From NCBI GenBank assembly GCA_018715225.1, contig DVMB01000071.1:1-35134 (forward strand): 35,134 nt of DNA, given 5' to 3'. Each line of letters starts with the position of its first letter. Position 1 is the stretch's first letter. The notes under the pieces were generated by a model. That model was not told the DNA's origin, did no database searches, and was given only the letters and a program-made list of their open reading frames with translations. This stretch comes from Candidatus Onthoplasma faecigallinarum. Lineage in GTDB: Bacteria > Bacillota > Clostridia > Christensenellales > UBA1242. The position numbers and the translations under genes were made by a program. Below are positions 11,351 through 30,367 of the stretch, one piece after another.

Positions 11351-13735
11351 ATGAAAAACAAAAAGAAAAACAAACGTACATTGACTCAAAATATAACCAG
11401 ATTCAACCCAAAGCCAAATACTGGCTTGACTCAAAAACAGATACAGCAACGAAGTGAGGAAAATCTGGTCAATATTTCCAACATAAAGACGACAAAAAGT
11501 TCGTGGAGTATATTTGCAAAAAATATATTTACATTTTTCAATATGACTTGTCTAGTGGTAGCTATAGCACTCATCAGCGTAGGTGCGTACACGGATATGA
11601 TGTTCATGGTCATAGTTATACTTAATACCACAATAGGTATCATCCAAGAGATCCGTGCAAAAAAGACTATGGACAAACTGTCTCTAACCAACTCCAATTT
11701 TACCAAAGTGATACGTGATGGAGAAGAAGAGGAAATCTACAAGACAGAGGTCGTGCTAGACGATGTCCTATGCCTCAATCCTGGTATGCAAATCGCCTGC
11801 GACAGCATTGTCCTCGAAGGTCAGGTGGAAGTAAACGAAAGTTTGCTCACAGGAGAAAGTCAACCTGTGAAAAAATCAAAAGGAGACAGCCTGCTAGGTG
11901 GGAGTTTTATCTCCAGTGGCACATGCAAGGCAAAAGTAAACAAAGTTGGAAATGACAACTACATCGTCCAGTTGAGTGAAAAAGCCAAAGCTTTTAAACA
12001 GGCAAAAAGTGAATTGCTCACTTCCCTCAGGGCTTTGATAAAAATAATTACCATATTCATGGTGCCTATCGCAATAATGATGTTATACAACAACTATACC
12101 TACTATTCAGCCAATCCAGCGGCAGAATATTCTCTAATATATATGGTAATCACAAAGACCAGCGGATGTATAATCGCCATGATTCCAGCGGGAATGTTCC
12201 TATTGACGTCTGTTGCCTTGGCAGTCAGCGTCATGCGTCTAGCCAAAAAGCGAACCCTTGTCCAAGACCTGTATTGTATTGAAATGCTCGCAAGGACCAA
12301 TGTCCTCTGTCTAGACAAAACGGGTACATTGACTAATGGTTCAATGAGTGTAAAAAATGTAGTCATGCTCAGCAAAAAGACAGAAAAAGATGTGGACAAA
12401 ATTGTCTCATCCATGGTGGCATCATTCCATGACGCTAATCACACAGCGTTGGCACTAAAGTCCTATTTTGGAAAACCCGTTTACTCTGCCGAAAAATCTG
12501 TACCTTTCTCTAGCGAGAGAAAATTCATGGGCTGTAAATTCAAGTCTATAGGAGCGTATAAATTAGGTGCCTATGAATATGTCTTGGATAATCCAAGCGA
12601 AGAGATAAAAAAGCAAGCAGAAGAATTCGCCCTGAGTGGTTACAGGGTATTGCTACTAACCGAATGTGATAACAACTTTACCAACAACAATTCAAAGCCT
12701 GTGGCTATGATTTTACTTCAGGACAACATTCGAAAAGACGCACCAAAAACTATAGAATGGTTCAAACAAAATGATGTGGACATCAAAATAATATCTGGCG
12801 ATAATCCTATAACGGTCAGCGAAGTGGCTCGCCGTGTAGGAGTTGATAATTATGATAAATACATCAGCCTACATGGACTTTCTAACACAGAGGTTATGGA
12901 GGCTGCCACAAAATACTCTATTTTCGGTAGAGTCAGTCCAGAACAAAAGGCAATATTGGTAAAAGCCTTAAAATCTCAGGGAAAAACTGTTGCCATGACG
13001 GGAGATGGCGTGAACGATATATTGGCACTGAAAGAGGCTGATTGTTCGGTAGCCATTGCAGCAGGAAGCGATGCTGCTCGTAGCGTGAGTCAACTGGTCT
13101 TGCTCGACAGCAACTTTAGTTCTATGCCAAGCGTGGTAGCAGAAGGTAGACGTGTGGTCAACAATATTCAAAAGTCCTCCTCTCTATTTTTGATGAAAAC
13201 CATATTTGCAATATGTATTTCAATCTTTGTGCTGTGTATGAACAAGACTTATCCATTTTCACCAATACAATTCATATTGCTAGAAATATTTGTCATAGGA
13301 CTGCCTTCTTTCTTCCTTGCACTGCAACCAAACACAAATCCTATCAAAGGCAAATTTATGTCTAACCTAGCGAAAAATGCGCTCCCCGCTGGTTTGTGCC
13401 TCGTGGGAGTAACGATCACTATGTACATCTATCAAATGTTCACTGGTATTTCTACCGAACTACTAGTTACAATGTCCTCTATCGCTATCGTTGCTGTAGG
13501 GTTTATGGCATTGTTTAGAATGTGTAAACCATTCAATTGGTTTAAATCTATTATGTACATTGCCTGCCTTGCAATATGTATAACCTGCGTTATCTTCTTG
13601 CATGACTTGTTTAGATATGTTGCTATTCCATATACCGATCTGTTATTCTTAATTATAGTTATAGAATCTGCTTTCCCTGTTTATTTGACTTTCAACTACC
13701 TAGCAGATCTATCAAAACACATATCTAAAGACTGA
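11351..13735 (+). CDS. P-type cation-transporting ATPase (HAD-IC, CtpE-like)
   Basis: LTGES, DKTGT phosphorylation motif, SGDN, TGDGVND and about 10 TM helices. Confidence 0.95.
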   Translation: MKNKKKNKRTLTQNITRFNPKPNTGLTQKQIQQRSEENLVNISNIKTTKSSWSIFAKNIFTFFNMTCLVVAIALISVGAYTDMMFMVIVILNTTIGIIQEIRAKKTMDKLSLTNSNFTKVIRDGEEEEIYKTEVVLDDVLCLNPGMQIACDSIVLEGQVEVNESLLTGESQPVKKSKGDSLLGGSFISSGTCKAKVNKVGNDNYIVQLSEKAKAFKQAKSELLTSLRALIKIITIFMVPIAIMMLYNNYTYYSANPAAEYSLIYMVITKTSGCIIAMIPAGMFLLTSVALAVSVMRLAKKRTLVQDLYCIEMLARTNVLCLDKTGTLTNGSMSVKNVVMLSKKTEKDVDKIVSSMVASFHDANHTALALKSYFGKPVYSAEKSVPFSSERKFMGCKFKSIGAYKLGAYEYVLDNPSEEIKKQAEEFALSGYRVLLLTECDNNFTNNNSKPVAMILLQDNIRKDAPKTIEWFKQNDVDIKIISGDNPITVSEVARRVGVDNYDKYISLHGLSNTEVMEAATKYSIFGRVSPEQKAILVKALKSQGKTVAMTGDGVNDILALKEADCSVAIAAGSDAARSVSQLVLLDSNFSSMPSVVAEGRRVVNNIQKSSSLFLMKTIFAICISIFVLCMNKTYPFSPIQFILLEIFVIGLPSFFLALQPNTNPIKGKFMSNLAKNALPAGLCLVGVTITMYIYQMFTGISTELLVTMSSIAIVAVGFMALFRMCKPFNWFKSIMYIACLAICITCVIFLHDLFRYVAIPYTDLLFLIIVIESAFPVYLTFNYLADLSKHISKD

Positions 13736-14582
13736 TTATGTTGCTGATTTTATGTGAATTTATCTCAAAATTATAAATACCCGCAAGGGTATTTTTTTTG
13801 AATAGAAAGACCTTGTTTTCACTGATTGGATAATAGTCATCAAATTCATCAAAAAAGTCCATTATACTATTTTCATTTTCCTGCCTTATATTGTCATCTA
13901 AAAGTGAATTACAATACTTGAAATTTTTATTCAACAAGCAATCTAAGAACGTGCACGCCACAAACTCGTCTTTTAGTTTCAACTCTTCTTCATCTAGATA
14001 TACGAGATATGTGTCAAACTTTTTGTCTTTGATTTGATACACTCTTCCGTGATTCAATACATCATGCTTTCTACACATAAACAATGTCTCATTATCTGCC
14101 ACATTGATTTCATCATAATAGTCCGCACAACATACCTCAGTCCCATTCAGTATGACAACATACTCTCTCGCTCCAGAAAAATATATAACACAAAGATCCC
14201 CCACCAGTTCGTAATGTGAAAACGTGATTTCTTCGACCCGTGTTTGCAATACAATTTCTCCGCCGACCAAGATCATAAGGTCTTCACTCAAGTTCAGTTG
14301 AACGTCCTTGTTGCCGTATTTAAAAGTGGTATAAAAGCCATTAGTGCTATAATGTGGCATGAGAAAAAAATAGTCGTCAACACCCTCTCTTATATGTACG
14401 ATCGATTTAGTGTTACAATCAGGGTTTGCAAAATTTATGATAATAGGAGATTCATTTCTATATCCTAAAAAAACGCAATTTTGATTCACACTATCTATGA
14501 CCTTATATTTTACATTAGGTAAAATCTCTGTTTTACTTTCCCCAAACATCAAACAATGAAACTTAGATACTAGATAAATCAT
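13725..14582 (-). CDS. Hypothetical protein (acidic, beta-rich)
   Basis: 285-aa ORF filling the space between neighbours. No motif recognised. Confidence 0.7.
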   Translation of the reverse strand: MIYLVSKFHCLMFGESKTEILPNVKYKVIDSVNQNCVFLGYRNESPIIINFANPDCNTKSIVHIREGVDDYFFLMPHYSTNGFYTTFKYGNKDVQLNLSEDLMILVGGEIVLQTRVEEITFSHYELVGDLCVIYFSGAREYVVILNGTEVCCADYYDEINVADNETLFMCRKHDVLNHGRVYQIKDKKFDTYLVYLDEEELKLKDEFVACTFLDCLLNKNFKYCNSLLDDNIRQENENSIMDFFDEFDDYYPISENKVFLFKKNTLAGIYNFEINSHKISNIISL

Positions 14583-14679: not shown

Positions 14680-14976
14680 ATGATAAAAAATTTAGTAAAA
14701 ATAAAATCCATCTCAAAAAAAGCAAAATGGAAAGATACAAAATGTAACATACATGTCATGCCCCCAACAATCACTGATGACGACATCACGGCGCTTTTCA
14801 ATGGCATACTAAATGTCATGCGAAAGAAAATAGAACTTGAGACTCGTGCCGAAATCATAAATATGAATGTCAACATTGAAAAGATAATGAAACAACTTAA
14901 CGAGAAAAAAGCAGAGTGTATAAGACTAAAAAATGAAATTTTGTATCTAAAATCAAAATACAACTATATCAAATAG
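14680..14976 (+). CDS. Small hypothetical protein with a C-terminal coiled coil
   Basis: 98-aa ORF with heptad-like 'IEKIMKQLNEKKAECIRLKNEILYLK'. Start uncertain. Confidence 0.6.
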   Translation: MIKNLVKIKSISKKAKWKDTKCNIHVMPPTITDDDITALFNGILNVMRKKIELETRAEIINMNVNIEKIMKQLNEKKAECIRLKNEILYLKSKYNYIK

Positions 14977-15378
14977 TACTTCTATGTCTATTGCATAATT
15001 TTTTACACCTTTATCTATCGCAAAATCAATCATAGAGTTTACAATATGCCGATTTTTTTCCGTAGACAAAAATATAGCGTCAATAGAGTTTTCTATAAGA
15101 TATTTAGTCAACTCTATGTTGTCCGTATTCATAATTTTGTCCAAATTAAATTTTGACTTGGAGTTATTAAAAACCATTATTGGCATTACCTTTCTACCTT
15201 TCGCCCTATCCCTCAGTTTGTCATATATCCGCTTTTCAAAATCGCCAAAACTATCTACATATATTTCATGATAGACGTATGCAATAGAGTCTACGATCTC
15301 TACTAACTTTTTTATAACTACATCATCAAAAAACTTTCTCTCAACAATTCCGTATCCTATTATAAAGCATTTTTTCAT
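14953..15378 (-). CDS. Degenerate SLOG-superfamily (YspA/DUF1273-like) protein
   Basis: Start moved to ATG 15378 (SD AAGGAG). MKKCFIIGYG resembles C.F.GHR, YVDSFGDFE resembles F..G..G.FD, KYLIENS resembles RN.YMID.S, and FAIDKGVK resembles YA.K.GK. Confidence 0.55.
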   Translation of the reverse strand: MKKCFIIGYGIVERKFFDDVVIKKLVEIVDSIAYVYHEIYVDSFGDFEKRIYDKLRDRAKGRKVMPIMVFNNSKSKFNLDKIMNTDNIELTKYLIENSIDAIFLSTEKNRHIVNSMIDFAIDKGVKNYAIDIEVLFDIVVF

Positions 15379-15413
15379 AAGCAAAATTTTTCTCCTTTGT
15401 GCTTTTTCTATTA

Positions 15414-15461
15414 TATACGTATAGATTTCTATACGTATAATTAAATTGATAACGTTTATCA
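15414..15461. promoter_or_regulatory. Operator-like palindromes in the divergent SLOG/XRE intergenic region
   Basis: TATACGTATAGA-TT-TCTATACGTATA (15414-15439) and TGATAA-CGT-TTATCA (15447-15461). Confidence 0.65.
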
Positions 15462-15468
15462 TAATAAT

Positions 15469-15708
15469 ATGAAAATAAACAAGGCTTTTGCATTAAAATT
15501 GTCGAAAATTATGTACGAAAAGGGCATTTCAAAATACAAACTTGAAAAAAAGACAGGTCTGTCACATGCAACTTTTCGAAATATTTTCAATGAAGTAAAT
15601 AGTGATATAATGTTTTCAACAATTATAAATATTTTGTCGGCGTTGGGCATTGAATTGAAAGATTTTTTTGACGATGAATTGTTTGATTACAAAAATCTAG
15701 ATTATTAG
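15469..15708 (+). CDS. XRE/Cro-family helix-turn-helix regulator
   Basis: 'L..IM.EKGIS.YKL...TGLS..T...I.......TI..I..ALGI.L.DFF' is a typical small XRE protein. Confidence 0.9.
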   Translation: MKINKAFALKLSKIMYEKGISKYKLEKKTGLSHATFRNIFNEVNSDIMFSTIINILSALGIELKDFFDDELFDYKNLDY

Positions 15709-15733
15709 TTGAAAAACATGAATTTTCGATTTT

Positions 15734-15757
15734 GTCAAATGATTTTGACTTTTTTTT
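15734..15757 (+). terminator. Intrinsic terminator after the XRE gene
   Basis: GTCAAA-TGAT-TTTGAC followed by T8. Confidence 0.55.
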
Positions 15758-15776
15758 CGTTTTTTTAAAAAATTAT

Positions 15777-15805
15777 TTGCATAAAAAAAATAAAATTGCT
15801 ATATT
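15777..15805 (+). promoter_or_regulatory. sigmaA-type promoter (extended -10) of the DisA_N-like gene
   Basis: TTGCAT-17 nt-TATATT with TG at the extended -10 position. Confidence 0.6.
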
Positions 15806-15826
15806 GTTTTAAAAGCGAGTTGAATT

Positions 15827-17044
15827 ATGGAAGAGATGATTTTTTTTGACAATGCAAAAGAAAACGTAACAAATTTTTTTGAAAAAGAATTTGAAAATTT
15901 TCCACCACTTTTGATGTCCAACTTTTTGAACAAATTTAATGATATCCTCAATTACAGCGAAGAAGGCAAGAGCATTAAACCAAGAATAATTTTCACTGAC
16001 AACATTGAAGCGATAATTAGAACCTTTCCAAAATCAAATGCTCTCACCATCTTTGAAGACGCTGAACCGACCATGTTCAACTCAAGGTTGAAATCGATCC
16101 TAGCGATTACACGTAATGACTGGTGTCTATTCGTGGATATAAAAGAAAACAAAATAACATACGGCCTAGTCATGTCGTTTAGAAGCATAAAGGACAAAAA
16201 ATTTCTTCAACAACTGGAAGAAAATACTACCCTAAAAGATAGACCCACAAAGATTCACTGCGTCGTGATTCGACCACTAAATTTCTTCACCATGTACCTA
16301 CACTCAATTTCGGGCAATGACTTGGTAGTCAATTTCGCTCTCGACAAATCAAAGAACAATATCTTTTCAACGGAAATTAAAGAATTTGTAGATGCAACAT
16401 TTTCAAAACTTAGGACAACTCAACGCAAACTGCAAGACATGAAAAATATGTATATAAATATTTTCACAAACGTCATGAGCGATGTAAATGGTGCAATATG
16501 CGTCATTGTGGACAAAGATTATAAAGACAATGGTCTCTTCGCTGACGGCATTTGGCTGAAAGAGCCAATAAGTTTTAGCAAACTATTCACTCAGTCAAAA
16601 AGTTATAGCGAAGAAAAACTGCAAGCCTATGCCGAACTATTCATCAACATGCTAAATTTTGACGGCATTACTATCATAGACAATCAAGGACGTATTCTTG
16701 CCTACAATGTGTTCGTAGAGCCAAATTCAAAAAAGGTTGGATACATCGTCGGTGGAGCAAGAAAGAGAGCCGCCTATTTCATCTTGAGTAGCAAGCGTAA
16801 AGGTATAGTGGGCGTCTATTTTCAGTCTCATGAGGGGGAAGTATTCTTCCAAGAGATTAAAAAACCTATTAGAAAATCTCAAATCAAAAAACCAGATCCA
16901 AAACCTGAGCCAAAAGCAGAGCCAAAACCCGAACCTAAGCCCGAGACTAAAGCCGACATCAACCCTGAGATTAAACTCGACTTGAACCCTGAGATAAAAA
17001 TTGACACTAAGACTGCTGAGATTGTAGCGGTAGAGGAAAATTAA
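15827..17044 (+). CDS. Divergent DisA_N (diadenylate cyclase fold) protein with an N-terminal putative sensor region and a Pro/Glu/Lys tail
   Basis: Motifs in order: GAICVIV, DGITII, GRILAY, GGARKRAA, FQSHEGEV. These align with DAC GALIV, DGAVII, RI.AA, GTRHRAA, VSEE.G. Confidence 0.7.
   Translation: MEEMIFFDNAKENVTNFFEKEFENFPPLLMSNFLNKFNDILNYSEEGKSIKPRIIFTDNIEAIIRTFPKSNALTIFEDAEPTMFNSRLKSILAITRNDWCLFVDIKENKITYGLVMSFRSIKDKKFLQQLEENTTLKDRPTKIHCVVIRPLNFFTMYLHSISGNDLVVNFALDKSKNNIFSTEIKEFVDATFSKLRTTQRKLQDMKNMYINIFTNVMSDVNGAICVIVDKDYKDNGLFADGIWLKEPISFSKLFTQSKSYSEEKLQAYAELFINMLNFDGITIIDNQGRILAYNVFVEPNSKKVGYIVGGARKRAAYFILSSKRKGIVGVYFQSHEGEVFFQEIKKPIRKSQIKKPDPKPEPKAEPKPEPKPETKADINPEIKLDLNPEIKIDTKTAEIVAVEEN
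16888..17005 (+). repeat. In-frame repeats: (KPEP)-like x5, then [I/L]NPEIK[L/I]D x2
   Basis: KPDPKPEPKAEPKPEPKPETK, then AACCCTGAGATTAAACTCGAC and AACCCTGAGATAAAAATTGAC at a 24-bp period. Confidence 0.85.
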
Positions 17045-17053
17045 ATACGAGAT

Positions 17054-17086
17054 AAAAAAGAAGCATGAAATCATGCCTCTTTTTTT
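17054..17086. terminator. Bidirectional intrinsic terminator between convergent genes
   Basis: AAAAAAGAAGCATGA-AA-TCATGCCTCTTTTTTT: a hairpin flanked by A and T tracts. Confidence 0.85.
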
Positions 17087-17819
17087 ACTTCTTTTTGAAC
17101 TTGATGACTGTTCTAAAAATGGTCTTGTCCACGCACTTGCCTTCAATATAGTAATATGATTTATACTTTTTTCGATATATGTCTATCTTGTCCCCTTCAT
17201 GACTTTCGTTGACAAAATAGATTTCATATTCCTTAATATCCATTGACTTCATCTCATCTACAGAAAAACAATCTAACGCCATAAAATTATATTTCAAATT
17301 GTTCGTGTGATTGTTGACATCTATATCAGTCGATCGAATTGTCTTCGTGTAGACATAGTCATCTTTATCAACATCTAACTTCATATTGGTGTAATTAGTC
17401 GGTATCTTTTTTGTCTCCACCATCTCTAATTGTGGGAAATTTATTGAATTACCTTTCCTTATTCTTCTCGTTTCGTAATCTAGACAACACCATTCAGCGA
17501 TAGCTTTGGCTTTTATTGAAGAGCCCACTTTCAATTCGCAGGCCCTGTCAAACCTGATCATACCTGGTTCATAGGTCCAGGTCTTGACCGTTGCTTTGTC
17601 CCCACTCTTTAGAGAACCAGTTACCAGCAATTTCATCTTGCTGACTATCCAAAAAGCGTTGCTCGTCTTTATCATATTGTCATGGTCTAGCCCGATGCTA
17701 TCCGCATGATTGAAAGTCGCAATCTCAAGCATTCGCATAATTTCAGTAATAGGAACTCTCATTTCATAATCTATGCTGGTATCATCGACCACCAATTTTT
17801 CTTTGTACATATTTTTCAT
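17085..17819 (-). CDS. Acyl-ACP thioesterase (FatA/B-like, double hotdog fold)
   Basis: 'FWIVSK', 'V.TW', 'W..LD..TRR' and catalytic 'DID.N.H.NN.KY'. Confidence 0.93.
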   Translation of the reverse strand: MKNMYKEKLVVDDTSIDYEMRVPITEIMRMLEIATFNHADSIGLDHDNMIKTSNAFWIVSKMKLLVTGSLKSGDKATVKTWTYEPGMIRFDRACELKVGSSIKAKAIAEWCCLDYETRRIRKGNSINFPQLEMVETKKIPTNYTNMKLDVDKDDYVYTKTIRSTDIDVNNHTNNLKYNFMALDCFSVDEMKSMDIKEYEIYFVNESHEGDKIDIYRKKYKSYYYIEGKCVDKTIFRTVIKFKKK

Positions 17820-20800
17820 TATCTTATCCTCATTCTAGTTCTTAATACAATTATGACGGTTACCACTGTGATAACAACTGCCACAACTACAACAATAATT
17901 ATTATCGCCCACACGTTCAATGGTTCTTTTATTACAGACTTGAAGCTCAGTATTACATTCCCCGAACTACTTTCAAGCCTGATGTAATAATCGCCTGCTC
18001 CGTTCTCGCTTTCTGTAATCGTGTATTGCATCTGCTCAACTGCTGAATTCTCATTGATCTCTGTTACAAGTATATCGTTGATATACAGATAACTATCCCC
18101 TACCTGGTCATAAATAATGCCTGGGTTAAATGTTATTGTGAAGCCGTCTGTAGTCGTCTCTCCCGTAGGTAGAGAGCATTCTATATTAGGAGTTTCATTG
18201 TTCATCGTAAACAAGAAGGTTATCTCTCTTCTAGGATAAATTCCGTCATCTACAACATATGTCATTGTAAATGTCTGTTTACCAGAAGCGATCCCCAATT
18301 CAGCACTATTTTCCATCAATTTATCATACGTCAACAACATTCCATTCACACTACTATTCATATTTAGCATATTTAGGAATGTATCCGTAACGTCTCTTCC
18401 ATATCCGTTGATGACAGAAGAAATTTCATAATTACTTAGGCTCGTAAAATCAATAGACACACGGGCTTCATTTTCATTGACGATTGTGAAGATCAAAACT
18501 TTTCTTAAACTCAACCCATTGTAGTTGGCGGTAACCGTAACTCTATATGTGCCGTAATCCGTGAAAGTATAATTATATTGTGATTTGATAGGAGAGTATG
18601 ATTGACCATTGCGTGTAGCGACTAGATCAATTGAACCCAAATCATAGATAGACGGACTATATACACTTATCTCTACTTCTCCGTTGTAATAAGCGTAATC
18701 GATAGGTGCTGTGCCGTTTACTGTTACTGCCACTTCTCTTAAGACAATGATATCTAGATTGGTTTGTGTAGTACCATAGGTTGTTGTAAACACATGTGAA
18801 TTTCCCGCCAAATCTTTGAATACAAATGAATATTTTCCGTTCCCCTCTATCTCGTACTCTACATTCGCTCCATTGTTCTGTTCGTCAATTGTAGATACCA
18901 AGACGTCGTTGTAATACACCTCGAGAACAATGCTATTTTTCCTGATCACATAATTGTTTAGTGCCAGTACTTGTCCAAAGGATAATACATATTCAGTCGT
19001 GCTAGCATCACTATAGACGAATGATAGGTTATTATTAGTAGATAGGTTATCTGTATTTAATCTTATATTTTGTACAATGGTTTCCAAATTAGGAACTTGC
19101 AATATACCTAAATACAGGCTATATGTCGTAGTCGCTATTCGATAAATTTTGAAGACATAACCCGTCGTGCCAATCTCAGCTTCAAATTGTGTCATGGTAG
19201 CCCCTTGGTCCGCCGCCACTATCACAAATAATTCCTCATTGCTGATATACAATGGTATATTTGTGTTGACCGAATTCAAATCAGGAGCTGTAGCCTCTTC
19301 TGTCAGTTTTAGACTTCCCGCAACCGAGTTCGCTGTAATATTAAACACTGCCAGATTCGTGTCCGCAAACAATTCCTGGAATCTAAATGTTGAGTTGGAA
19401 GATACTGCCACATTGTTGCCCGTCTGTACATAATATAGTTGATTAATCATTGATTGAACTGAGAAGGTATAAACTTTGTTCCCTAGATACAACCCCTCTA
19501 CCGTGTAAATCTCTATCTCAAACTTGTATGTACCAGTGCTATCTTGGCTCGTATTGATCACATAATTAGTTTGATTATCTAGTTGAGTCGTAACATATTC
19601 GCCATCTTGCATCAATTCGTGTATTGAATAATAATACCTAAAGTAATCATTAGTTGGAACTGTCCAGGATAGATTCATTGTACCAGAAGTCGTGCTAGTA
19701 TAAATGGTATCCTCATAATTTGTATTGATGTCGATGTTCATATTTTGACTTACATTGTTGGTATCTCTCAAAGTTACCGTACCTGTAGTCGAATCCAGAA
19801 CAATATTATATCCAAATTCATATTCGTTGTTGTATATGAACTGAACTCTCACTTGCAAAATTGCCCCCGCATAATTTGATCCAATGAATGGATATACGAC
19901 AATATTACCATTTTCTCTGTCTATCTCAATGATGGTTATTCCGTTGTAAGTTACAACATTTTGATCGACTGACACTGTGAGATTTTCTCCATTTATATTG
20001 TAAGTTATATTCAATTCATATAAAGATGTGTCGTATGAGATATTGGCTTGATTGAAAGTGTAGTATGTGTTATTTGTCTCATAATAATTTGCAGTCCCAT
20101 CCTCTCCAAAGGACAAACTATAAAATTCTTCGCCCGAAGTGTTGAACCTATAGGTTGAAACTGTCCCAAACGCATCTGTCATAACAATTTGATATGTACC
20201 GCTCAGGTTTGTCAAGATGTGCGATGCAACTGGCTCTAAATTTGAACCATTGACGATGTAATAATTATACTCGTTGTCGCTAGGTATACATCTATAAGTA
20301 GTAGACTCATTGTTATGAATTATCTGTATTTGTTCGGCGTAGTAGACTATGTTGTTGTAAGTCTCATTTGCCCCTTGCAAATTTATCACATATTGCCCAT
20401 CCCTGAATTCTACCAGATTGGCGACATTCAACTCTATTCTGTCATCTGCGTCATAATAATTTAGCGTGCCAGAATATGTATTCGTCCTCGACCTTATTGT
20501 AAAGATATAATTACCTCGTCCAGCATTCTTTACCATATCTATGATTTTTTGTGCCAACTCTGTGCCGACAAAATCATCTGTGCCATTTGTATTGATTGCA
20601 ACTGTCTCTCCCGATGCTAAATTCGTCAATTCAAATCTATAGAATTTATCCACAACAGAATTGAATACATCCACACTTGGCAAAGCCAAATCAAATATAG
20701 TCAAACTGTCATTCATTGTGTCTGTAGATAAGTCAAATACTCTGTTGCTTGCTGAAATGACTCCCGAATTTACAGTAGTCAAATTTAACGTCATGGTCAA

Positions 20801-23800
20801 ATTGTCATATTCTTGGTCTGCATAGAGCACGACATATTGTGTCATATTCCCAGCCGAGTCAATTTCCAAAATTTCCACATATCTACCCTGCTCGCTATAG
20901 GTCAAAATTCCACCATATGTAGATACAAGAGCTAGCGAACTTGCGGCAGTATAACCTGCAAAATTAGTAATAGGCAAACTTAAATTCACTTCGCTAAGGT
21001 CATTTATTGACCTAAAATACACTCTGTCAACATCTGTGTTGTCAAATGGAGTGTTTGCATTCACTACAAAGGCATAGATTTTGCCCGCATTTGAAGTTGT
21101 ATAATATGCGTCATATCTATTGACGAAATATATCCCCGCATTAGTTTCATAAATATAATTAGAAAACATTTCTGTCTCGTTCTCTAAATTATAGTACTCG
21201 ACCAACGTATCATTTTCTACTAAATAATCTATATTGTTTTCAGGTGGGATACGATCTATAATTACTCTATACCTTGTCTCGTAATAAGTTACTAAATTGC
21301 CATTGGCGTCATAGTAATAATAACAATCTATATATCTATTGCTAACACTGTTCCCGCTAAGTTTGTATCTTATAACTATATCATAATATAAGGTGTCATT
21401 GATAGAATCGTAATTGATATTTCCGGAAGAATCACGCAAATAAGTATTCAAATATATCACTCTAGACACGACATTGCCTGAATCGTCTCGTATGTTTTGA
21501 ACAGCACTGGAGTCCGTATTCAAATCAAACTCGCCACCAGTGTTGGAATACTCGTATCTTATATAATCGGTAGTCCTGCCATTTTGCGTCCTGGTAACTA
21601 TCAAATAATTGATATCAACCTGTGCTGTGGTACTATCAACATTGTATTCGTTTAAGTTTATCTTGACGAATTCTTCGCTAGTAGTCAACACATATGTACC
21701 ATCATTATTCGCCTCACTGGCAACGTAATAAGCACTATCCACTCCCAAATCGCTTTCTGGTACCGAATAAACATCTGTTGTTGGGTTGCTTGTCTCGATC
21801 CTAAAGCCTATGATCTTGCTATGACTTCCCGTCGTGCCTACCACAAGGTCTTTGATTATGACAACATAATCTCCAGGAAGACACAACCAATCGGTCTCAT
21901 TGTTCCCACGTATAAAGATCTCTTGTAACGGATTGGACAAATATTGAGTCATATCGATATTGTAATAGTTTCCGTCATAGTTAGATGTGTCGGCACTATC
22001 TGTGGTGTCTATACTGAAAAGTTTTATGGTCGTTCCACGACTGCTTCCGCTCAGTTGATTTTGCCTATCCACAAAATACACATCAAATACCAGTCTCCCT
22101 GCATAATAATTTGAGCCGTATCTTCCGCCGAAATATTTGCCTACTGGTATACTTAGCGTTGCAGGCAATTTATCTGTCCTCAAGTACAAATCATATCTTT
22201 GATTGCTGATATTGTCCTGTATGTAACTGAATGTTGAATTGTCTGTATTGATTTGTGAAAATTCATTGAATTCGGTTTCATTCTCTAAGAGATTGATAGT
22301 TATAAAGCCACCATTTATGTCATTGTTTCTATCTATGATATCATTTCTATCCACAATGAAATAATAATTTTGCACCCAACTATCTTCGCCAAAGTCGGTC
22401 GATTCGTCGCCAACATATCTACGCTCAATGACATACAATCCAGCACGAGTCATTCCGTCTACGACATTGATTAGAGCAAAACCTTGCGTCCCTGAATTGA
22501 ACGATCGTGCTCCGTTCGAGAACGCACCATTGGAATACAATGTGATTTCATTGACGAAAGAATAATATTTGAGATTTGTCCTATCTGCGTTCCAATTGTC
22601 AGTATAGTTGTCCTCACTCAAATTCAACTCATAGAATCGATATGTAATCGAGCCAACTTCGTACGTACCTGTACCCATGTTCCAGACAAAAGCCACATAA
22701 TTGTCGCTAGTAGCCATGGCACCATCAATACCATTATAGGTTATATCCTCAACTGTATTGTCGCTACCAGTATCTAGAATCGTCCCTGAAGAGATGGTAT
22801 CATTGTCGACATTGATCGCATCTTGGCTATAATACACTGTACCACGTGAGTTGTCTTTGTTGATAGTGAGGGTTACAAACGAGTTGGAATCTTGCGAGTC
22901 GGTTATGGTTTGGTTCTCGCTCATCAAATACAACACCCTTATCATGCTGGTCGAAGCAGAAGCCACATACTGCATTGTGCGTGTATGATTCGACGCCGTT
23001 ATATTTTGAATAGATAGTGAGTTATCTAAAATTCCAAGGTTAGAATAAGCAGTCAGCGAATTGTTCTGTACTGTCAAATAATAACTATTGTCATTAGGTA
23101 AATATGTAAAAATTCTACCTAGAGCCGCTGTATTAGTACCGCTCTCCAAGAAATAGTCATTGTCCTGATATTCTCCCTTGATGAGAGAATATAGTTCATT
23201 TGTCTTTTCGTCGCTCGTGGCGTTAGAGTCCATCAACTTGAACACTTTGTGCGTTCCAACTTCAAACTCTATGTCATCGCCATACAGCAAAGACGCACCT
23301 GTTACCATCTCGCCTTCGACTTTGAAATACGCTTCCGTATTGTCAATGACGAACATATATTTGCATGTAAAGCCCGCTTCATCTGTCAGCGTGAATACAT
23401 AAATTCCTTGATTGAATAAAATATTTGATATTTGTACTTGGCTACCTATTGAATCTACCCTAGATATATCAAACGAGCCAATGGTCGTTCCCAATTCATA
23501 ATTCGTAGTGTACCATATCGCACTGTCGGACAGATAGACTTCGCTTGCACTGAGATTGTTGTTTCTCACAAATGGTGTGTAAGTATATGTTGCAGTGATG
23601 TTTGCTCCGCTGGCTTTGTCGTTCCAATACAATGTAACATAACTATCTATTATTGAACTGGTAACTCTAATGTATTCTCCCGAACTCGTTGTCTTGAATT
23701 CATAAGAAGTCGAATTATCCACATTGGAGACTGCTTCCACTGCATAAGGCATAACCCCCGAGATTGGTTGTCTATCTATAGTAAACATTCTATAAGTCGC

Positions 23801-25954
23801 TGCACTACCTTCGCTGATCAATTCAATCAAATATACTGCGAATTGCCCATTTTGAATATTTTGACCAATTAGATCCCCGCTCGTCAATGCGGTGTAATTT
23901 AAATTCAAGAGTTGATCTTTTGTGTACACTTGATTTACGATATAATAATATCTCGCTGTGATTTCACGTTCAAACACATCTGGCTGAGCCCATGTGATGA
24001 TCACATTTTTATTCGTATATCTCCCTGAACCAACGACCTCCCCGTCTTCTGTATTTACATTTATATTTATAGTGTCAGTGGTGTATCTAAAAGCAAAGAT
24101 TTGATAATATCCCTCTGCATTGGTTGGAGTAACATAGATAAATACCAAATAATATCCCGTCCTGTTGAACGACACTTGGTTTGTGTAATTTATGCTTGTT
24201 GAGATGATCTCATCGTTTGAAGTTGTGTATAGACTTGTAGGGCTTATCGCACTCGTCGAGTAGAAATAGAAACTTCTATTCAAACTGAAAGTATCATTAC
24301 TGCTAAGCCACAAAGAGCCTTGATTTGTCTTTTCGTATGTGATCTCGCCCAAGATTTCTGCCACACTATTTATAGCATCGGCATTTGCCGTTGGATCATC
24401 TAGTAATGTGTCATAGTTTTGTACATTATCCGCAAAAGCGTCCGCATCAAAACTAGAATTTATATCATTGATTTTATGATTGATTGTCGCATCTTGATAT
24501 GACCAAACAGTACCTACTTTTGTAGGAGTTTCTGTATTTGAAAATTCTGTTTTGAAGTCATAAGATAGTCCCAAACCGTCAATAGATGGTTCCGCACCGA
24601 ATAGATAACCATTTGGCACAACCAAGTCCACGCCCGCACCAGCATCTTTTGACAAGAGCAAATATCTCATCTGTGCTTCCTGATAATTTGCCTTTGAATA
24701 TTTCAATTCAAAGCCGTGTATATTCAATGCTTGATTGGATATTGTTAAGTTCATATCTGGCATATTGTCCGCATTGTAGCCCGAATATACATACTCAAAC
24801 GAGAAATTATAACTACCCACTTCGGTCAATAATAATACAACTATATTGTTTGTGGCATTTATATCGTACTCCCCTAAGTTGTACGTCTCATACCTTGTCC
24901 CCGAAGAAGATGTGATTGTGCAAACTAAGTTGGCAGTCGTCCCTCCTATAGTCGTATTAGTTGTGTAATCATAGTCGTATGTAGTAACTCTTCCATTTGC
25001 GGTCAGCGTATAACTCATCTTATATTTTGTATAATCGTATGTAAGCGTAGGATAATTTGCTGATGTTTGCCCTAGATTGTATTGCAAAACATTCGACGCA
25101 TCCGTAGTAAGACTCACTCCCTCGCACTCTATCGTAGGCTGTGCATTGTACTGAAATCCGTTATGGCTGATCATCCCATCATAAGAAGATTCATATAAAA
25201 TATAAAAGTTAAATGTTTGGAAATATGTTACATTGTTATATCTATATGTAATATTGAACTCGTAGTACCCTTCATTGCCGTCCACTTGCGGAATTATGTA
25301 TACAAAATCTTGATACAAGTTGTTGTCATATTGTCTCACGCCTGGCAAGTTGGTAATTGGCACACCATTCCTGCTGGCTTGTACATTGATATATTGAATG
25401 TTGGCTCCTGTGTTTTCTCCAGCATATTCTGCAGACGTTGTCCCATTGACAAACACATATTGACCAAATGACACCATCACGGCCTCCGCCAAACTGACTG
25501 GCTCATAGGTTTGCGAGTCTTCATCATATACAAATCCCGTCTGTGAATTTGTATATCCAGATGATGAGATGTCGTTATTCAACATTACAAAATCGCCATT
25601 ATGGATTATATATCTATCCTGCCCATCATTCGAGATATCATCAAAATAATATGCACCATCTCTCGTCAACATTGAATTATATACAGTATCTAATGATTGA
25701 GCATCATATAGTGGGGTTGTGAATGGAGAGTCGTCTTCAATCTCGTCATTTGTGGAAATTACATTTACCTTTTCCACCGCCAGCACAATATTGTTGCTAT
25801 CCACCGCACTAAATTCAGGATTGTTGCTAAGTTCGGCAGCAAAGACAGTTTCTCGTCCTTTATAATTAAAATTTATTGACAAACAAATACCGGCTGTGAG
25901 CAACACAACCATTATTATTAATATTTTATTGATTAATTTAACTTTCCCCTTCAA
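17819..25954 (-). CDS. Giant (2711 aa) cell-surface protein with signal peptide, Ig-like beta-sandwich modules and a C-terminal TM anchor
   Basis: TTG start with SD AAGGGG. Signal peptide ending near VFA. Recurrent 'G.Y.F...D.AG(N)...Y.F.ID..P' motifs. Ends in a poly-Ile/Val TM followed by RTRMRIR. Confidence 0.85.
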   Translation of the reverse strand: MKGKVKLINKILIIMVVLLTAGICLSINFNYKGRETVFAAELSNNPEFSAVDSNNIVLAVEKVNVISTNDEIEDDSPFTTPLYDAQSLDTVYNSMLTRDGAYYFDDISNDGQDRYIIHNGDFVMLNNDISSSGYTNSQTGFVYDEDSQTYEPVSLAEAVMVSFGQYVFVNGTTSAEYAGENTGANIQYINVQASRNGVPITNLPGVRQYDNNLYQDFVYIIPQVDGNEGYYEFNITYRYNNVTYFQTFNFYILYESSYDGMISHNGFQYNAQPTIECEGVSLTTDASNVLQYNLGQTSANYPTLTYDYTKYKMSYTLTANGRVTTYDYDYTTNTTIGGTTANLVCTITSSSGTRYETYNLGEYDINATNNIVVLLLTEVGSYNFSFEYVYSGYNADNMPDMNLTISNQALNIHGFELKYSKANYQEAQMRYLLLSKDAGAGVDLVVPNGYLFGAEPSIDGLGLSYDFKTEFSNTETPTKVGTVWSYQDATINHKINDINSSFDADAFADNVQNYDTLLDDPTANADAINSVAEILGEITYEKTNQGSLWLSSNDTFSLNRSFYFYSTSAISPTSLYTTSNDEIISTSINYTNQVSFNRTGYYLVFIYVTPTNAEGYYQIFAFRYTTDTININVNTEDGEVVGSGRYTNKNVIITWAQPDVFEREITARYYYIVNQVYTKDQLLNLNYTALTSGDLIGQNIQNGQFAVYLIELISEGSAATYRMFTIDRQPISGVMPYAVEAVSNVDNSTSYEFKTTSSGEYIRVTSSIIDSYVTLYWNDKASGANITATYTYTPFVRNNNLSASEVYLSDSAIWYTTNYELGTTIGSFDISRVDSIGSQVQISNILFNQGIYVFTLTDEAGFTCKYMFVIDNTEAYFKVEGEMVTGASLLYGDDIEFEVGTHKVFKLMDSNATSDEKTNELYSLIKGEYQDNDYFLESGTNTAALGRIFTYLPNDNSYYLTVQNNSLTAYSNLGILDNSLSIQNITASNHTRTMQYVASASTSMIRVLYLMSENQTITDSQDSNSFVTLTINKDNSRGTVYYSQDAINVDNDTISSGTILDTGSDNTVEDITYNGIDGAMATSDNYVAFVWNMGTGTYEVGSITYRFYELNLSEDNYTDNWNADRTNLKYYSFVNEITLYSNGAFSNGARSFNSGTQGFALINVVDGMTRAGLYVIERRYVGDESTDFGEDSWVQNYYFIVDRNDIIDRNNDINGGFITINLLENETEFNEFSQINTDNSTFSYIQDNISNQRYDLYLRTDKLPATLSIPVGKYFGGRYGSNYYAGRLVFDVYFVDRQNQLSGSSRGTTIKLFSIDTTDSADTSNYDGNYYNIDMTQYLSNPLQEIFIRGNNETDWLCLPGDYVVIIKDLVVGTTGSHSKIIGFRIETSNPTTDVYSVPESDLGVDSAYYVASEANNDGTYVLTTSEEFVKINLNEYNVDSTTAQVDINYLIVTRTQNGRTTDYIRYEYSNTGGEFDLNTDSSAVQNIRDDSGNVVSRVIYLNTYLRDSSGNINYDSINDTLYYDIVIRYKLSGNSVSNRYIDCYYYYDANGNLVTYYETRYRVIIDRIPPENNIDYLVENDTLVEYYNLENETEMFSNYIYETNAGIYFVNRYDAYYTTSNAGKIYAFVVNANTPFDNTDVDRVYFRSINDLSEVNLSLPITNFAGYTAASSLALVSTYGGILTYSEQGRYVEILEIDSAGNMTQYVVLYADQEYDNLTMTLNLTTVNSGVISASNRVFDLSTDTMNDSLTIFDLALPSVDVFNSVVDKFYRFELTNLASGETVAINTNGTDDFVGTELAQKIIDMVKNAGRGNYIFTIRSRTNTYSGTLNYYDADDRIELNVANLVEFRDGQYVINLQGANETYNNIVYYAEQIQIIHNNESTTYRCIPSDNEYNYYIVNGSNLEPVASHILTNLSGTYQIVMTDAFGTVSTYRFNTSGEEFYSLSFGEDGTANYYETNNTYYTFNQANISYDTSLYELNITYNINGENLTVSVDQNVVTYNGITIIEIDRENGNIVVYPFIGSNYAGAILQVRVQFIYNNEYEFGYNIVLDSTTGTVTLRDTNNVSQNMNIDINTNYEDTIYTSTTSGTMNLSWTVPTNDYFRYYYSIHELMQDGEYVTTQLDNQTNYVINTSQDSTGTYKFEIEIYTVEGLYLGNKVYTFSVQSMINQLYYVQTGNNVAVSSNSTFRFQELFADTNLAVFNITANSVAGSLKLTEEATAPDLNSVNTNIPLYISNEELFVIVAADQGATMTQFEAEIGTTGYVFKIYRIATTTYSLYLGILQVPNLETIVQNIRLNTDNLSTNNNLSFVYSDASTTEYVLSFGQVLALNNYVIRKNSIVLEVYYNDVLVSTIDEQNNGANVEYEIEGNGKYSFVFKDLAGNSHVFTTTYGTTQTNLDIIVLREVAVTVNGTAPIDYAYYNGEVEISVYSPSIYDLGSIDLVATRNGQSYSPIKSQYNYTFTDYGTYRVTVTANYNGLSLRKVLIFTIVNENEARVSIDFTSLSNYEISSVINGYGRDVTDTFLNMLNMNSSVNGMLLTYDKLMENSAELGIASGKQTFTMTYVVDDGIYPRREITFLFTMNNETPNIECSLPTGETTTDGFTITFNPGIIYDQVGDSYLYINDILVTEINENSAVEQMQYTITESENGAGDYYIRLESSSGNVILSFKSVIKEPLNVWAIIIIVVVVAVVITVVTVIIVLRTRMRIR

Positions 25955-26262: not shown

Positions 26263-27696
26263 TTATATTAATTTTTGCACTCCTTTCATTGACACCACTT
26301 TCAAAGTTTTTGCTATCTCATTGGTGTTTGCGTCAATGTAATAAAAATATGTCCCATCTATTCTGTCCACCATAAACTCATATGTTGCAACCTCTTTTCC
26401 ACTATCTAGACGAATTATCGCCTTGGTTACTTTCAGTATTTCATAATCAAATCCCAACAATTTTTCAGCATCGCTCTCTTCAATCGTGAAATTTGCTTGC
26501 CTCTCCACATGATTTAGGGCATAATTTACGGCCTCAAAACCAATTATCTCTTGTGCCGTCAAATCTACCTTAACTTTCACCAAGTCGGGATACAAGATGA
26601 TGTCATTCTTTACTGGAGCCAAGTTGATATACGCCACATTTTCATGCGTCTCCAACCATACTGGTTCCATACTATCAAAGCCTATATTGTTGGCAAATGT
26701 TTTTGCCATTTCCATCGCTTGTTCGCTCAGCATCACGGCATCCCCTCCTTCCGCATATCCAGAAAGAGTGATCAAAAGTGAACCAGTTTTGCTCACTTGC
26801 GCATAAAATTTCTTTTTGTTTATCACAATGTTGAAATTATATGTCGCTATGTCTCCGTTCGTCTCATTTTCGTAACTAATTGAAACATCTCTATTTTTAT
26901 ATACAGTATTTACTAGGTAATCATACACTTCTTCTTGACTGACCTCTCTATCTCCCAAGCCTTTCACTTCGCTTGTCTCCAAAGCAGTAGAGAATGGTCC
27001 ATCGAAAATCATTGCAGGATAATCTATACTCTCCCCTGTCAAATCTCCCATGCCAGCGGACAATTCGTTCATGCCAGTACTATCAAAAATCCCCGCATCA
27101 ACAAAAGTGAAATTTGTATCATACATACTTTCGTTTTGTTTATTTAGGTTCGCTTTGATTTTATCCAATACTAAGCCAATTTTGTTGAACATCAATTCTT
27201 CTTCCTGAGTCAACGTCTCTCCTTTGTTTAGAGTGGTGGCATATGCTTCACATAAGCCATTTACTTGATTGAAAAATTTAGTTGCTGCGGCAGCATTTTG
27301 TTCATCAATCGGCAAGACACTTAAACCCGCCAAAATATAATTGCAATCTCCCATCATGTCCTGCAATATAGCCAATTTTGCCTGCCTTGTACTTAAGGTA
27401 GAGTATTTTGAAATGTCTACCGCTAAATTGTTCACATTATCCACCATTGAATAATAACTGGAAGTGTACACCCCCTCTAGAACATTGGCATTTTGCTTGC
27501 TAGATTTGTTGACCTGATAATAGGCTATCAGCACACATGTCAAAATTATCAAAAGAGTAACTATTATCACAATCAAGATTGGCATCGCCTTTTGGGCGTT
27601 ACTTTTTTTCTTGGTCTCTTTGTCTTGATTTACTTTTGACTTTTTGCTTTCTTTTTCTTCGTCAAAATCTACGCTAGATATTTTGTTTTTGTCCAT
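26263..27696 (-). CDS. ypeB: Germination protein YpeB (SleB partner, PepSY domains)
   Basis: N-terminal TM, 'L..LP......KF.NQV', 'YP.MIFDGPFS', 'LYPDLVKVKV.L...IIGFEA..Y..NH'. Downstream of sleB. Confidence 0.93.
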   Translation of the reverse strand: MDKNKISSVDFDEEKESKKSKVNQDKETKKKSNAQKAMPILIVIIVTLLIILTCVLIAYYQVNKSSKQNANVLEGVYTSSYYSMVDNVNNLAVDISKYSTLSTRQAKLAILQDMMGDCNYILAGLSVLPIDEQNAAAATKFFNQVNGLCEAYATTLNKGETLTQEEELMFNKIGLVLDKIKANLNKQNESMYDTNFTFVDAGIFDSTGMNELSAGMGDLTGESIDYPAMIFDGPFSTALETSEVKGLGDREVSQEEVYDYLVNTVYKNRDVSISYENETNGDIATYNFNIVINKKKFYAQVSKTGSLLITLSGYAEGGDAVMLSEQAMEMAKTFANNIGFDSMEPVWLETHENVAYINLAPVKNDIILYPDLVKVKVDLTAQEIIGFEAVNYALNHVERQANFTIEESDAEKLLGFDYEILKVTKAIIRLDSGKEVATYEFMVDRIDGTYFYYIDANTNEIAKTLKVVSMKGVQKLI

Positions 27697-27708
27697 AAAC
27701 TCTCCTTT

Positions 27709-28410: not shown

Positions 28411-28419
28411 ATTCACCCC

Positions 28420-28944: not shown

Positions 28945-28965
28945 AACCTGATCTTTGGCCGTTAC

Positions 28966-28997
28966 AAAAAAATAATACGCACGAATTTGTGCGTATT
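28966..28997 (-). terminator. Intrinsic terminator after the amidase gene
   Basis: 9-bp stem AATACGCAC/GTGCGTATT followed on the minus strand by ATTTTTTT. Confidence 0.75.
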
Positions 28998-29024
28998 TAA
29001 AAGGAAAAACAAAGAAAATACATA

Positions 29025-30083: not shown

Positions 30084-30367
30084 TTTCACCTCATAATCTT
30101 GTATGAGTATGGATTGAAAAATGTTAATATTTTTATTTACATACATTAAACTACTCTTTATTCTATTGCAAGAAATAATATATATAATAATCATGTAAAT
30201 ATTGATACCTAAATAAATTATAGATAGACAGCAAAATTAAACTCTCAATCAACTGACAAACTTAATCAAAATCTTAAATTATCTTTGAATACAAAAAATT
30301 GAGATAAAATCTATATATAAAGAAAACAATTTTCTTACGAAAATATGTTTTGTTGTTAACACAATAA

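Follow-up and report, generated by a model that had tools for sequence, protein, structure and literature searches.

A divergent diadenylate-cyclase-like protein of Candidatus Onthoplasma and its relatives in a two-gene module

We analysed a 35,134-nucleotide stretch of DNA from Candidatus Onthoplasma faecigallinarum (GenBank assembly GCA_018715225.1, contig DVMB01000071.1, positions 1 to 35,134; hereafter the window), focusing on a forward-strand gene that starts at position 15827. An earlier note on this DNA, made from the sequence alone, had read its product as a non-canonical protein of the diadenylate cyclase (DAC) fold and as a candidate nucleotide-signalling enzyme. We lean towards the view that this DAC-like protein belongs to a divergent, uncatalogued DAC family and actively synthesises a cyclic dinucleotide, and that it came from a mobile two-gene module and was domesticated without its partner in a lineage that lacks the canonical cyclic di-AMP (c-di-AMP) machinery.

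An AlphaFold2 model was built from an alignment of 57 diverse family members, whose sequences are 20-50% identical (mean predicted local distance difference test score, pLDDT, 93.6; predicted template modelling score, pTM, 0.89). We compared this model with 48,161 representative chains using VIA-align, which is independent of Foldseek. The six best chains are all DAC enzymes, with Z scores of 9.5-11.3 over 120-126 aligned residues at 2.8-3.1 Å, and the seventh row drops to Z 3.9. They are DisA (3c1y; Z 11.3, 125 residues aligned, root-mean-square deviation 3.1 Å, model residues 182-345), M. smegmatis DisA (7y0d; Z 11.1), DacM (7dg0; Z 10.3), a B. cereus "membrane spanning protein" (2fb5; Z 10.1) that PMC8573169 describes as a CdaS homologue, CdaM (8ofj; Z 9.6) and CdaA (9g69; Z 9.5). 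Foldseek, which the earlier note had proposed for a comparison with DisA and CdaA, gives a DAC enzyme in every row listed (DisA, CdaA, DacA, DacM and CdaM; best E 4.4e-4), so the fold match is not an unrelated one. ESM Atlas neighbours are DAC clusters carrying DACNH, DACNK, DACND or DACNG. On this modelling, residues 182-345 have the DAC fold, and the DisA_N elements that had been seen in the C-terminal half do stand there in collinear order. The parts of the gene and of its product are as follows.

15827..17044, forward strand: the whole open reading frame (ORF; P0001), 405 amino acids (aa) plus stop; a contig from an RNA library spans the full ORF
15827..16351, forward strand: N-terminal alpha/beta domain (N-domain), residues 1-175, delimited by conservation and the AlphaFold2 model (pLDDT mostly >90)
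15953..15967, forward strand: Y-S-E-E-G motif, residues 43-47 (family consensus YxEE[GE]); E45 and E46 each in 57/57 members, Y43 in 53/57
16370..16861, forward strand: DAC-fold domain (C-domain), residues 182-345, placed by VIA-align, Foldseek and hhalign
16487..16495, forward strand: N-G-A, residues 221-223, equivalent to H-G-T of the family and, in the CdaA register, to x-G-A; H221 in 55/57 and G222 in 57/57 of the family
16661..16672, forward strand: D-G-I-T, residues 279-282, the DGA equivalent, aligned on DGA of DisA and CdaA; D 57/57, G 57/57, I 48/57, T 52/57
16751..16771, forward strand: G-G-A-R-K-R-A, residues 309-315, the G-T-R-H-R-A-A equivalent; G310 and R312 in 57/57, R314 in 55/57
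16826..16837, forward strand: S-H-E-G, residues 334-337 (S-Q-D-G in the family), aligned by hhalign on SEDGG of the CdaG-type DAC domain; S334 and G337 in 57/57
16862..17041, forward strand: Lys/Pro/Glu low-complexity tail, residues 346-405, made of tandem repeats, unconstrained and variable in length

On its own, the query draws no pertinent hit from Pfam, NCBIfam, PADLOC or PHROGs at a threshold as loose as E<=1, nor from PDB sequences. It belongs to a family of 552 proteins (E<=0.001 in a collection clustered at 90%) with 476 cluster representatives at 50% identity, which are mostly 340-360 aa and match over their full length; the 120 matches listed are 76-99% identical, and every one is named "hypothetical". 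Residues E45, E46, G222, D279, G280, G310, R312, S334 and G337 are invariant in the 57-member alignment, and Y43, P52, K89, W99 and G113 of the N-domain are nearly so. The resulting family motifs are YxEE[GE], HGT, DGIT, GGARxRA and SQDG. The third residue of the DGA equivalent is I in 48 members, as here, V in 6 and A in 3; position 313, the middle of the RHR equivalent, is free (K in 28, as here, T in 10, R in 9, S in 6); position 336 is acidic in 55 of the 57 (D 50, E 5, N 2). All 12 genus sequences have N221 where 55/57 family members have His, and all 12 have S-H-E-G as opposed to the family's SQDG. The DGI at 16661-16669 and the G-A-R-K-R at 16754-16768 lie exactly where the earlier note had put them, and they really differ from DGA and RHR. 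They are not peculiar to this protein, however: the 57-member alignment shows that DGI and R-x-R are the norm of the 552-protein family.

Profile comparisons tie the family to DACs in the same motif register in every alignment. The 57-member profile has two DAC proteins as its best PDB matches, motif on motif (2fb5, E 0.07; DisA 3c1y, E 0.12). With 12 CdaA proteins of the same order, hhalign gives P 1.6e-4 for the full profile and 4.7e-5 when only the C-domain is used. The best profile-profile score of the C-domain, P 3.9e-6 (probability 87%), is to the DAC domain of CdaG-type proteins as certified by Pfam, and cross-domain controls stay at P 0.19-0.29. The Pfam DAC model PF02457 is touched by 15 of 57 and 5 of 51 members (best member E 1.1e-5), and of the 17 PF02457 matches that stay below threshold across 151 genomes of the taxonomic family, 15 fall within genes of the DAC-like family. 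A collinear four-motif pattern, formulated post hoc, occurs in one of 5,364 six-frame segments of the organism's own genome, namely this ORF, and in none of 107,280 shuffled segments. That the motifs are coincidental and the protein unrelated to DACs is extremely improbable. Such a chance resemblance would suit the failure of every library model to match the query and the modest PDB profile E values, but, unless the AlphaFold2 model is wrong in spite of its pLDDT of 93.6, it is ruled out by the Z scores to six DAC enzymes, with the gap below them, and the constant motif register also speaks against it.

The closest characterised relative is the CBASS-DAC cyclase (NF053872), which the earlier note had missed. 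One protein with DACNH and DAC domains (locus L120) matches Pfam DACNH (E 2.3e-23), DAC (E 5e-12) and NF053872, "DS2_3_antiphage" (E 2.9e-123); its relatives are ~590 aa and carry DACNH, DAC and DACNG, the architecture of CdaG, which according to PMC13640721 includes a C-terminal helix bundle. In CBASS-DAC (Liu-DS2), a DAC catalytic mutation abolished defence and Acb1 suppressed immunity, the product not being identified in the account of PMC13069673. The family of that cyclase carries G-A-R-Y-N-S-A instead of GTRHRAA. Defence depends on catalysis by this GARYNSA-bearing cyclase, so a changed RHR motif is compatible with function. Both groups share a DAC dialect (HGT, DG-hydrophobic, G-A-R.., S-E/Q-D-G, with RHR altered) and both occur in conflict-system or mobile contexts, as described for CdaG in PMC13640721. 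Unlike CdaG, the DAC-like protein is conserved over ~345-350 aa without DACNG (PF21752) or a helix bundle, has R-x-R in place of R-Y-N, and gives no NF053872 match, and neither do eight relatives.

CdaA and CdaS carry their DAC domain at the C-terminus, behind a regulatory N-terminal region. The DAC domain of the DAC-like protein is likewise C-terminal behind an N-terminal region. With the canonical DACs (DisA, CdaA/DacA, CdaS and CdaM/DacM; PF02457) it shares the fold, the Asp-Gly of DGA, both Arg of RHR and the Ser/acidic motif, whereas DGA has become DGI(T), GTRHRAA has become GGARxRA, the stretch between the first and second motif does not align to CdaA, and the protein stays under the Pfam threshold. 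It also differs from DisA in having no helix-hairpin-helix (HhH) domain and from CdaA in giving no TIGR00159 match.

The family's real partner, which the earlier note had missed and which is lost here, is an all-alpha protein of ~430 aa. In each of the first 10 loci examined, a diverse set (B. cereus, B. fungorum, Paenibacillus, Desulfosporosinus, Syntrophomonas, a Geobacter metagenome-assembled genome (MAG), a spirochaete MAG, Lachnospiraceae, Congzhengia and a Bacillota MAG), a gene for ~430-460 aa lies directly downstream and often overlaps. Among the 90 loci of our tree, the partner is present in 32 and absent from 46 with at least 1.3 kb of downstream sequence, while 12 could not be decided. 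The DAC-like protein is 25-51% identical to the paired members over ~340 aa, that is, over its full length. Three natural fusions (521-631 aa) join a whole DAC-like protein to the last third of the partner (E 8e-17, 5e-14 and 4e-12), which would predict that in separate pairs the C-terminus of the DAC domain touches this last third; no fused form of at least 777 aa was found, which is weak evidence.

The partner matches no Pfam family (0/9; plasmid copies 0/2), and in NCBIfam six of eight copies have no match while two have chance-level matches far under the cut-offs. One of nine copies touches SduA/DUF4263 in PADLOC (E 1.1e-5), a match that was not used further, and the partner profile finds nothing in the PDB. 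In its Atlas model it is an all-alpha module, which is met again in fusions with caspase-family and Ser/Thr-kinase proteins (TM-score 0.76-0.77 by query). The pair occurs beside integrases, Tn7-like TnsA/TniQ, IrrE-HTH, RelA_SpoT and D12 methylase genes. A Vibrio plasmid has the order helix-turn-helix (HTH) gene, pair, type II restriction-modification (R-M) genes, IS3, and an Agrobacterium plasmid has the pair back to back with a patatin and nucleotidyltransferase operon. Three viral contigs in IMG/VR carry the pair; two queries of GenBank phages gave 0 records each. Four of five genomes with the paired form keep canonical DACs. Overall, the module occurs sporadically in Bacillota, on proteobacterial plasmids, on integrative or viral contigs and in surroundings that resemble defence islands.

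Two described systems differ from this arrangement. PanDA consists of PanS, a minimal DAC (~150 aa, DAC only), and PanE, an effector of the 2TM-beta type (PMC13640721); the same preprint describes a tendency of immune and housekeeping DACs to exclude each other. Like PanDA, the module is a DAC exapted into a two-gene unit on mobile or defence islands. It differs from PanDA, of which PanS was compared by description, in its extra N-domain, its all-alpha partner and the coexistence of the paired form with canonical DACs noted above. From CdaG/CBASS-DAC it differs in that the all-alpha partner is unrelated to the CdaG flanks (P 0.6) and no CD-NTase/patatin operon accompanies it; the gene in the window is moreover solo and chromosomal. 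With its uncharacterised all-alpha partner, the family brings the kinds of DAC-based two-gene module to three, PanDA and CBASS-DAC being the other two.

No partner gene was found in the organism's own genome or in the genus (5/5 genomes, own included), and the gene downstream of the DAC-like gene in the window is a convergent thioesterase gene, not a partner. In the taxonomic family, 12 of 151 genomes (5 genera) have the partner, always adjoining the DAC-like gene. A quick maximum-likelihood tree of 90 rows, midpoint-rooted with the root itself not tested, places the window's genus within a mixture of paired and solo forms. Either side of the midpoint root includes paired forms, and others sit deep inside a large Christensenellales-type clade. 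On this tree a minimum of 2 state changes accounts for the paired/solo label, where shuffled labels take 25. The sequence that follows the DAC-like gene at 53 solo loci holds no partner remnant. Nearly all solo forms have a tail, 4-152 aa long (one lacks it); in paired forms it measures 0-3 aa, with one exception of 29 aa. These sequence comparisons indicate that the partner was lost at least twice in the Christensenellales family, and that the DAC-like gene persisted there and acquired a disordered tail of repeats.

Within the genus, nonsynonymous divergence (pN) is 0.086 in the DAC domain and 0.175 in the N-domain, against a saturated synonymous divergence (pS) of 0.82-0.84, which points to strong purifying selection on both domains; in the tail, pN is 0.60 against a pS of 0.69. 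Column entropy is not higher in solo than in paired forms. The gene is single-copy and near-universal in the genus, and its GC content is native (0.362, genome 0.347).

PF02457 has no match in the organism's own genome (1.01 Mb, 75.6% complete) at E<=10, nor in E. coli, which served as a genome control. It is found in 0/25 genomes of the genus, in which the DAC-like family is present in 24/25; the one genome without the gene (G009) probably reflects an assembly gap, because the neighbouring thioesterase is missing too. Across 16 other families of the order, by comparison, a DAC is present in 15/16 and the DAC-like family in 0/16, and the family is absent from 400 other genomes of the phylum. 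Within the taxonomic family (151 genomes, 58 genera), the gene occurs in 68 genomes from 25 genera, mostly all-or-none within each genus shown, and a canonical DAC over the PF02457 cut-off occurs in one genome. That sole DAC-positive genome (G450) has its gene on a contig of which ~2.7 kb was retrieved, in an assembly with 4% contamination. A separate observation concerns the two sub-threshold PF02457 matches (16-18 bits) outside the family gene: they lie at G449:C7:111143-111460 and G525:C26:25729-25941, in ORFs of 331 and 168 aa, which may encode another DAC-like protein in relatives. A B. cereus-type genome with the paired form likewise has a fourth PF02457 match besides its CdaA-, CdaS- and DisA-size ORFs (G590:C25:48845-49114, 28.9 bits, in a 439-aa ORF), which may be yet another non-canonical DAC.

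Several observations weigh against an active synthase. The ligand site departs from canonical DACs at three residues (I for A in DGA, A for T ahead of the first Arg, K for H), and the near-invariant family His221 is replaced by Asn in the genus. The query matches no DAC model, PF02457 being absent at E<=1, and the PF02457 scores of family members, where bits are shown, are 15-19 bits, under the 27-bit cut-off. With a less diverse C-domain profile (A6), no DAC chain is found in the PDB and P against the CdaG-type profile is 0.0025; because this profile fails, the sequence evidence alone depends on the alignment. In the taxonomic family, 33/58 genera have neither the gene nor a canonical DAC, so the function is dispensable for the lifestyle. 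The genus has no detected c-di-AMP riboswitch (0/26 genomes) and no PgpH, DarA or TrkA_C/RCK_C (0/5 each), and its DHH/DHHA1 proteins are of RecJ and NrnA size only; with no known receptor, dedicated phosphodiesterase or riboswitch detected there, c-di-AMP as a signal would lack any known reader. The RNA evidence presented below consists of contigs from a metatranscriptomic library that may hold DNA, and has no silent-stretch control.

Part of this evidence would fit a pseudo-enzyme that keeps the DAC fold as a nucleotide- or protein-binding module and has no cyclase activity: DGI and A-R-K-R are non-canonical, the Thr and His of GTRHR are lost, Asn stands for His221 in the genus, there is no Pfam-level match, and the genome holds no known c-di-AMP readers. 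We regard this as rather improbable. The key DAC residues are retained across the family (D279, G280, R312 and S334 in 57/57, R314 in 55/57, acidic 336 in 55/57), and invariance among sequences that are 20-50% identical is usually imposed, we infer, by catalysis and not by mere binding. A relative with a more degenerate motif is, moreover, catalytically needed for defence in the experiments of PMC13069673. In the mutational data of PMC3328451, RHR to AAA abolishes ATP binding and activity, the RHR data being from that triple mutant only, and G to A in DGA of a DisA orthologue is tolerated; CdaA D171N serves as the standard inactive variant (10.1101/2023.01.09.523207).

The complementary distribution in the genus and order suggests another possibility, namely that the protein simply replaces CdaA as a housekeeping c-di-AMP synthase that keeps potassium and osmolytes in balance, as in other Bacillota. 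The genus lacks a canonical DAC and has no other DAC-fold protein, and the gene is core, syntenic and under purifying selection. At the family level, however, the complementarity is gone, and the 33 genera with neither DAC nor gene argue against a simple replacement. The usual targets and turnover enzymes were not found in the genomes searched, and paired family forms coexist with canonical DACs in most of the genomes inspected. We judge such a replacement quite improbable.

The module contexts raise the alternative that the gene still serves in anti-phage defence or another conflict, its N-domain sensing infection and its nucleotide acting on an unlinked or unknown effector, or harming the cell. 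This reading draws on ancestry in a two-gene module beside R-M genes, IS3, a patatin operon, integrases, Tn7-like genes and IrrE-HTH, as well as on three viral contigs; on the kinship with the CBASS-DAC cyclase; and on the recurrence of the partner fold in fusions to caspase-family and kinase proteins. The gene in the window is nevertheless a syntenic chromosomal core gene of native GC, set between a P-type ATPase and an acyl-ACP thioesterase. Solo forms of other genera stand amid housekeeping genes, with LysM-GH18, YqeY, Ham1 and epimerase genes among their neighbours, and are all-or-none by genus; neither partner nor remnant was found, nor SMODS (0/5 genomes), and the 0/5 for SAVED is uninformative, as its control was also silent. 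A present-day defence role is in our view unlikely, though less so than a pseudo-enzyme or a CdaA replacement. We also looked for a replacement partner beside the solo forms and rejected it, the neighbours being housekeeping genes only. At 12 solo loci of other genera, a cardiolipin-synthase-like gene with two phospholipase D (PLD) domains lies downstream on the same strand, at 6-268 bp (median 63), an arrangement that could be an operon or mere synteny.

On the reading as an active synthase that we favour, the protein would bind ATP, or another nucleoside triphosphate, with a divalent metal. Two DAC domains would meet head to head, as DAC catalysis is described to require in PMC8573169, and the cyclic dinucleotide that they form would most probably be c-di-AMP or something close to it. 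Self-association of the DAC domains would be gated by the N-domain, and the domesticated former conflict-system cyclase would now serve the cell independently of a partner, with so far unknown receptors reading its signal. We put forward only tentatively, as possible, that an immune-type cyclase has here turned housekeeping, having been domesticated by a reduced-genome, spore-forming gut lineage without the canonical c-di-AMP network, and that it makes the only cyclic dinucleotide of that lineage, be it c-di-AMP or another, for receptors of an unknown kind. If true, this domestication would run opposite to the exaptation reported for PanDA and CBASS-DAC, and the paired form from which the gene descends would be an anti-phage system not described so far.

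The same cyclase with and without a partner in sister genera offers a natural experiment, which could reveal the role of the partner and how an enzyme of a conflict system is taken over. For the reduced-genome family UBA1242, the gene points to a signalling route without known readers. A 2026 gut census of c-di-AMP producers counts, as described in PMC12901056, only DisA, CdaA, CdaS, DacZ and CdaM; because the present family escapes the Pfam DAC model on which censuses rely, a cyclic dinucleotide may still be made in lineages that such counts take to be DAC-negative.

Candidatus Onthoplasma is placed in the GTDB family UBA1242, whose reduced genomes are described as retaining sporulation genes (PMC12306168). 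The window holds dense sporulation and germination genes at 1424-5196 and 26263-30194 (GerAC, a GerAB-type permease, GerA, YpeB, a SleB-type hydrolase, SpoIIR and a CwlD-like amidase), in agreement with the published surprise that UBA1242 keeps sporulation. We considered a CdaS-like role in sporulation and rejected it: SpoIIR is present in 52/58 genera and the gene in 25/58, and SpoIIR does not track the gene.

The N-terminal sequence, described in the earlier note as unrecognised, remains so over ~175 aa in the four libraries, and its best structural match in the VIA-align search of the full model reaches only Z 3.0, none being clear. Residues 20-124 give weak matches (Z 2.4-2.6) to the histidine-kinase ATP-binding domains of ThkA, HprS and CheA P4, which are far below significance and a lead at most. 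Full-length hhalign to the DACNH-DAC profile is collinear over 265 columns (P 1.1e-4), and the N-domain alone reaches P 0.0095 over only 25 columns in another register. PF21750 (DACNH) matches faintly in 1/51 members (E 0.057). In the organism's own genome, PF21750 (at E<=10) and PF21753 find nothing, and hhalign of the N-domain failed against both the DAC domain and its own C-domain. The N-domain is presumably regulatory or sensory. As the earlier note had said, an HhH domain is lacking: no HhH family matches in Pfam at E<=1, and the C-terminus is a repeat tail. No CdaA-type match (TIGR00159) was found in NCBIfam. Judging from the compact, confident two-domain model, the protein is predicted to be soluble and to lack transmembrane helices.

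The limits of the gene needed one correction. Its start at 15827 on the forward strand was confirmed, but the end given in the earlier note, 16860, is wrong: the ORF runs to 17044 (405 aa), and 16861 is the end of the conserved part, beyond which comes the 60-aa tandem-repeat tail. This tail has a 12-nt unit repeated 3.5 times at 16888-16929 and a 24-nt unit repeated 2.3 times at 16943-16998, and is 14-70 aa long across genus sequences. The following flanking signals were found.

15776..15805, forward strand: promoter-like site TTTGCA-18 nt-TATATT with an upstream TG, from a site scan and genus conservation
17063..17086, forward strand: terminator-like hairpin (17063-17076) followed by a T-run, 19 nt past the stop, from a scan

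These agree with the promoter and terminator that had been attributed to the gene, the promoter-like site being conserved in the genus and the hairpin with its T-run lying 3' of the stop. Promoter-like sites are common in AT-rich DNA (21 found, 15.8 expected), so the site is weak alone; both boxes are kept in 6 of 9 other genus rows aligned, and the remaining three rows end before or within the boxes. An Rfam scan of the window gave 0 matches. In an RNA library, a 2,382-nt contig of depth 46.2 starts at 15808, covers 15808-17150 and extends further, and contigs of the same run upstream of the gene have a depth of at most 6.4. It differs from the window by 11 substitutions and a 12-nt in-frame deletion equal to one tail repeat. 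The contig agrees with the promoter, as weak evidence, since contigs cannot prove transcription, strand or ends.

The gene order of the genus is P-type ATPase, orf285, orf98, DAC-like gene, acyl-ACP thioesterase and giant protein, and neighbours of the cdaR/glmM type are absent from the window. Two features lie just upstream of the DAC-like gene.

14680..14976, forward strand: orf98, a small coiled-coil-like protein, directly upstream of the gene in 13/13 genus loci and in 0/80 others
14953..15708, no single strand: private insertion, not part of the system, with orf169 (14953-15462, reverse strand) and an XRE HTH gene (15469-15708, forward strand); absent from 12/12 other genus loci

The earlier note had placed the DAC-like gene next to a SLOG-like/XRE cassette and had suggested a link between them. 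An XRE gene is indeed present at 15469-15708 (HTH_26, E 7.4e-11), but the 169-aa ORF is not detectably SLOG-like: it matches no family in Pfam (E<=1), NCBIfam or PADLOC, SLOG included, and its best PDB sequence match is the ligand-binding domain of CcpA/LacI (E 7.5e-4). The link itself is refuted, since both genes are missing from all 12 other genus loci and belong to an insertion with a GC content of 0.270 (genome 0.347) that sits upstream of the conserved promoter. An XRE-like ORF is near the gene in only one of 80 loci from other taxa (L099, ~2 kb upstream). The low-GC insertion with orf169 and the XRE gene extends over 14953-15775, and a later start is likely for orf169, because its start codon and that of the XRE gene are 6 bp apart.

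The core of orf98, HVMPxxISDxDIxALFxG...RLKNE, is conserved, with a pN of 0.31 against a pS of 0.77, and no family or PDB match was found for it; orf98 might be a lineage-specific companion or functional neighbour of the solo gene. On its other side, orf285 (13725-14582, reverse strand) is syntenic in the genus at 36-47% identity; it has no significant family, its NCBIfam and PHROGs hits (E 0.09 and 0.46) being at chance level, and no PDB sequence matches it at E<=1. Downstream, 17819-25954 (reverse strand) encodes a giant 2,711-aa protein rich in Asn, Thr, Ser and Tyr with a hydrophobic C-terminal segment, which is conserved beside the locus in the genus at 37-79% identity over the available parts.

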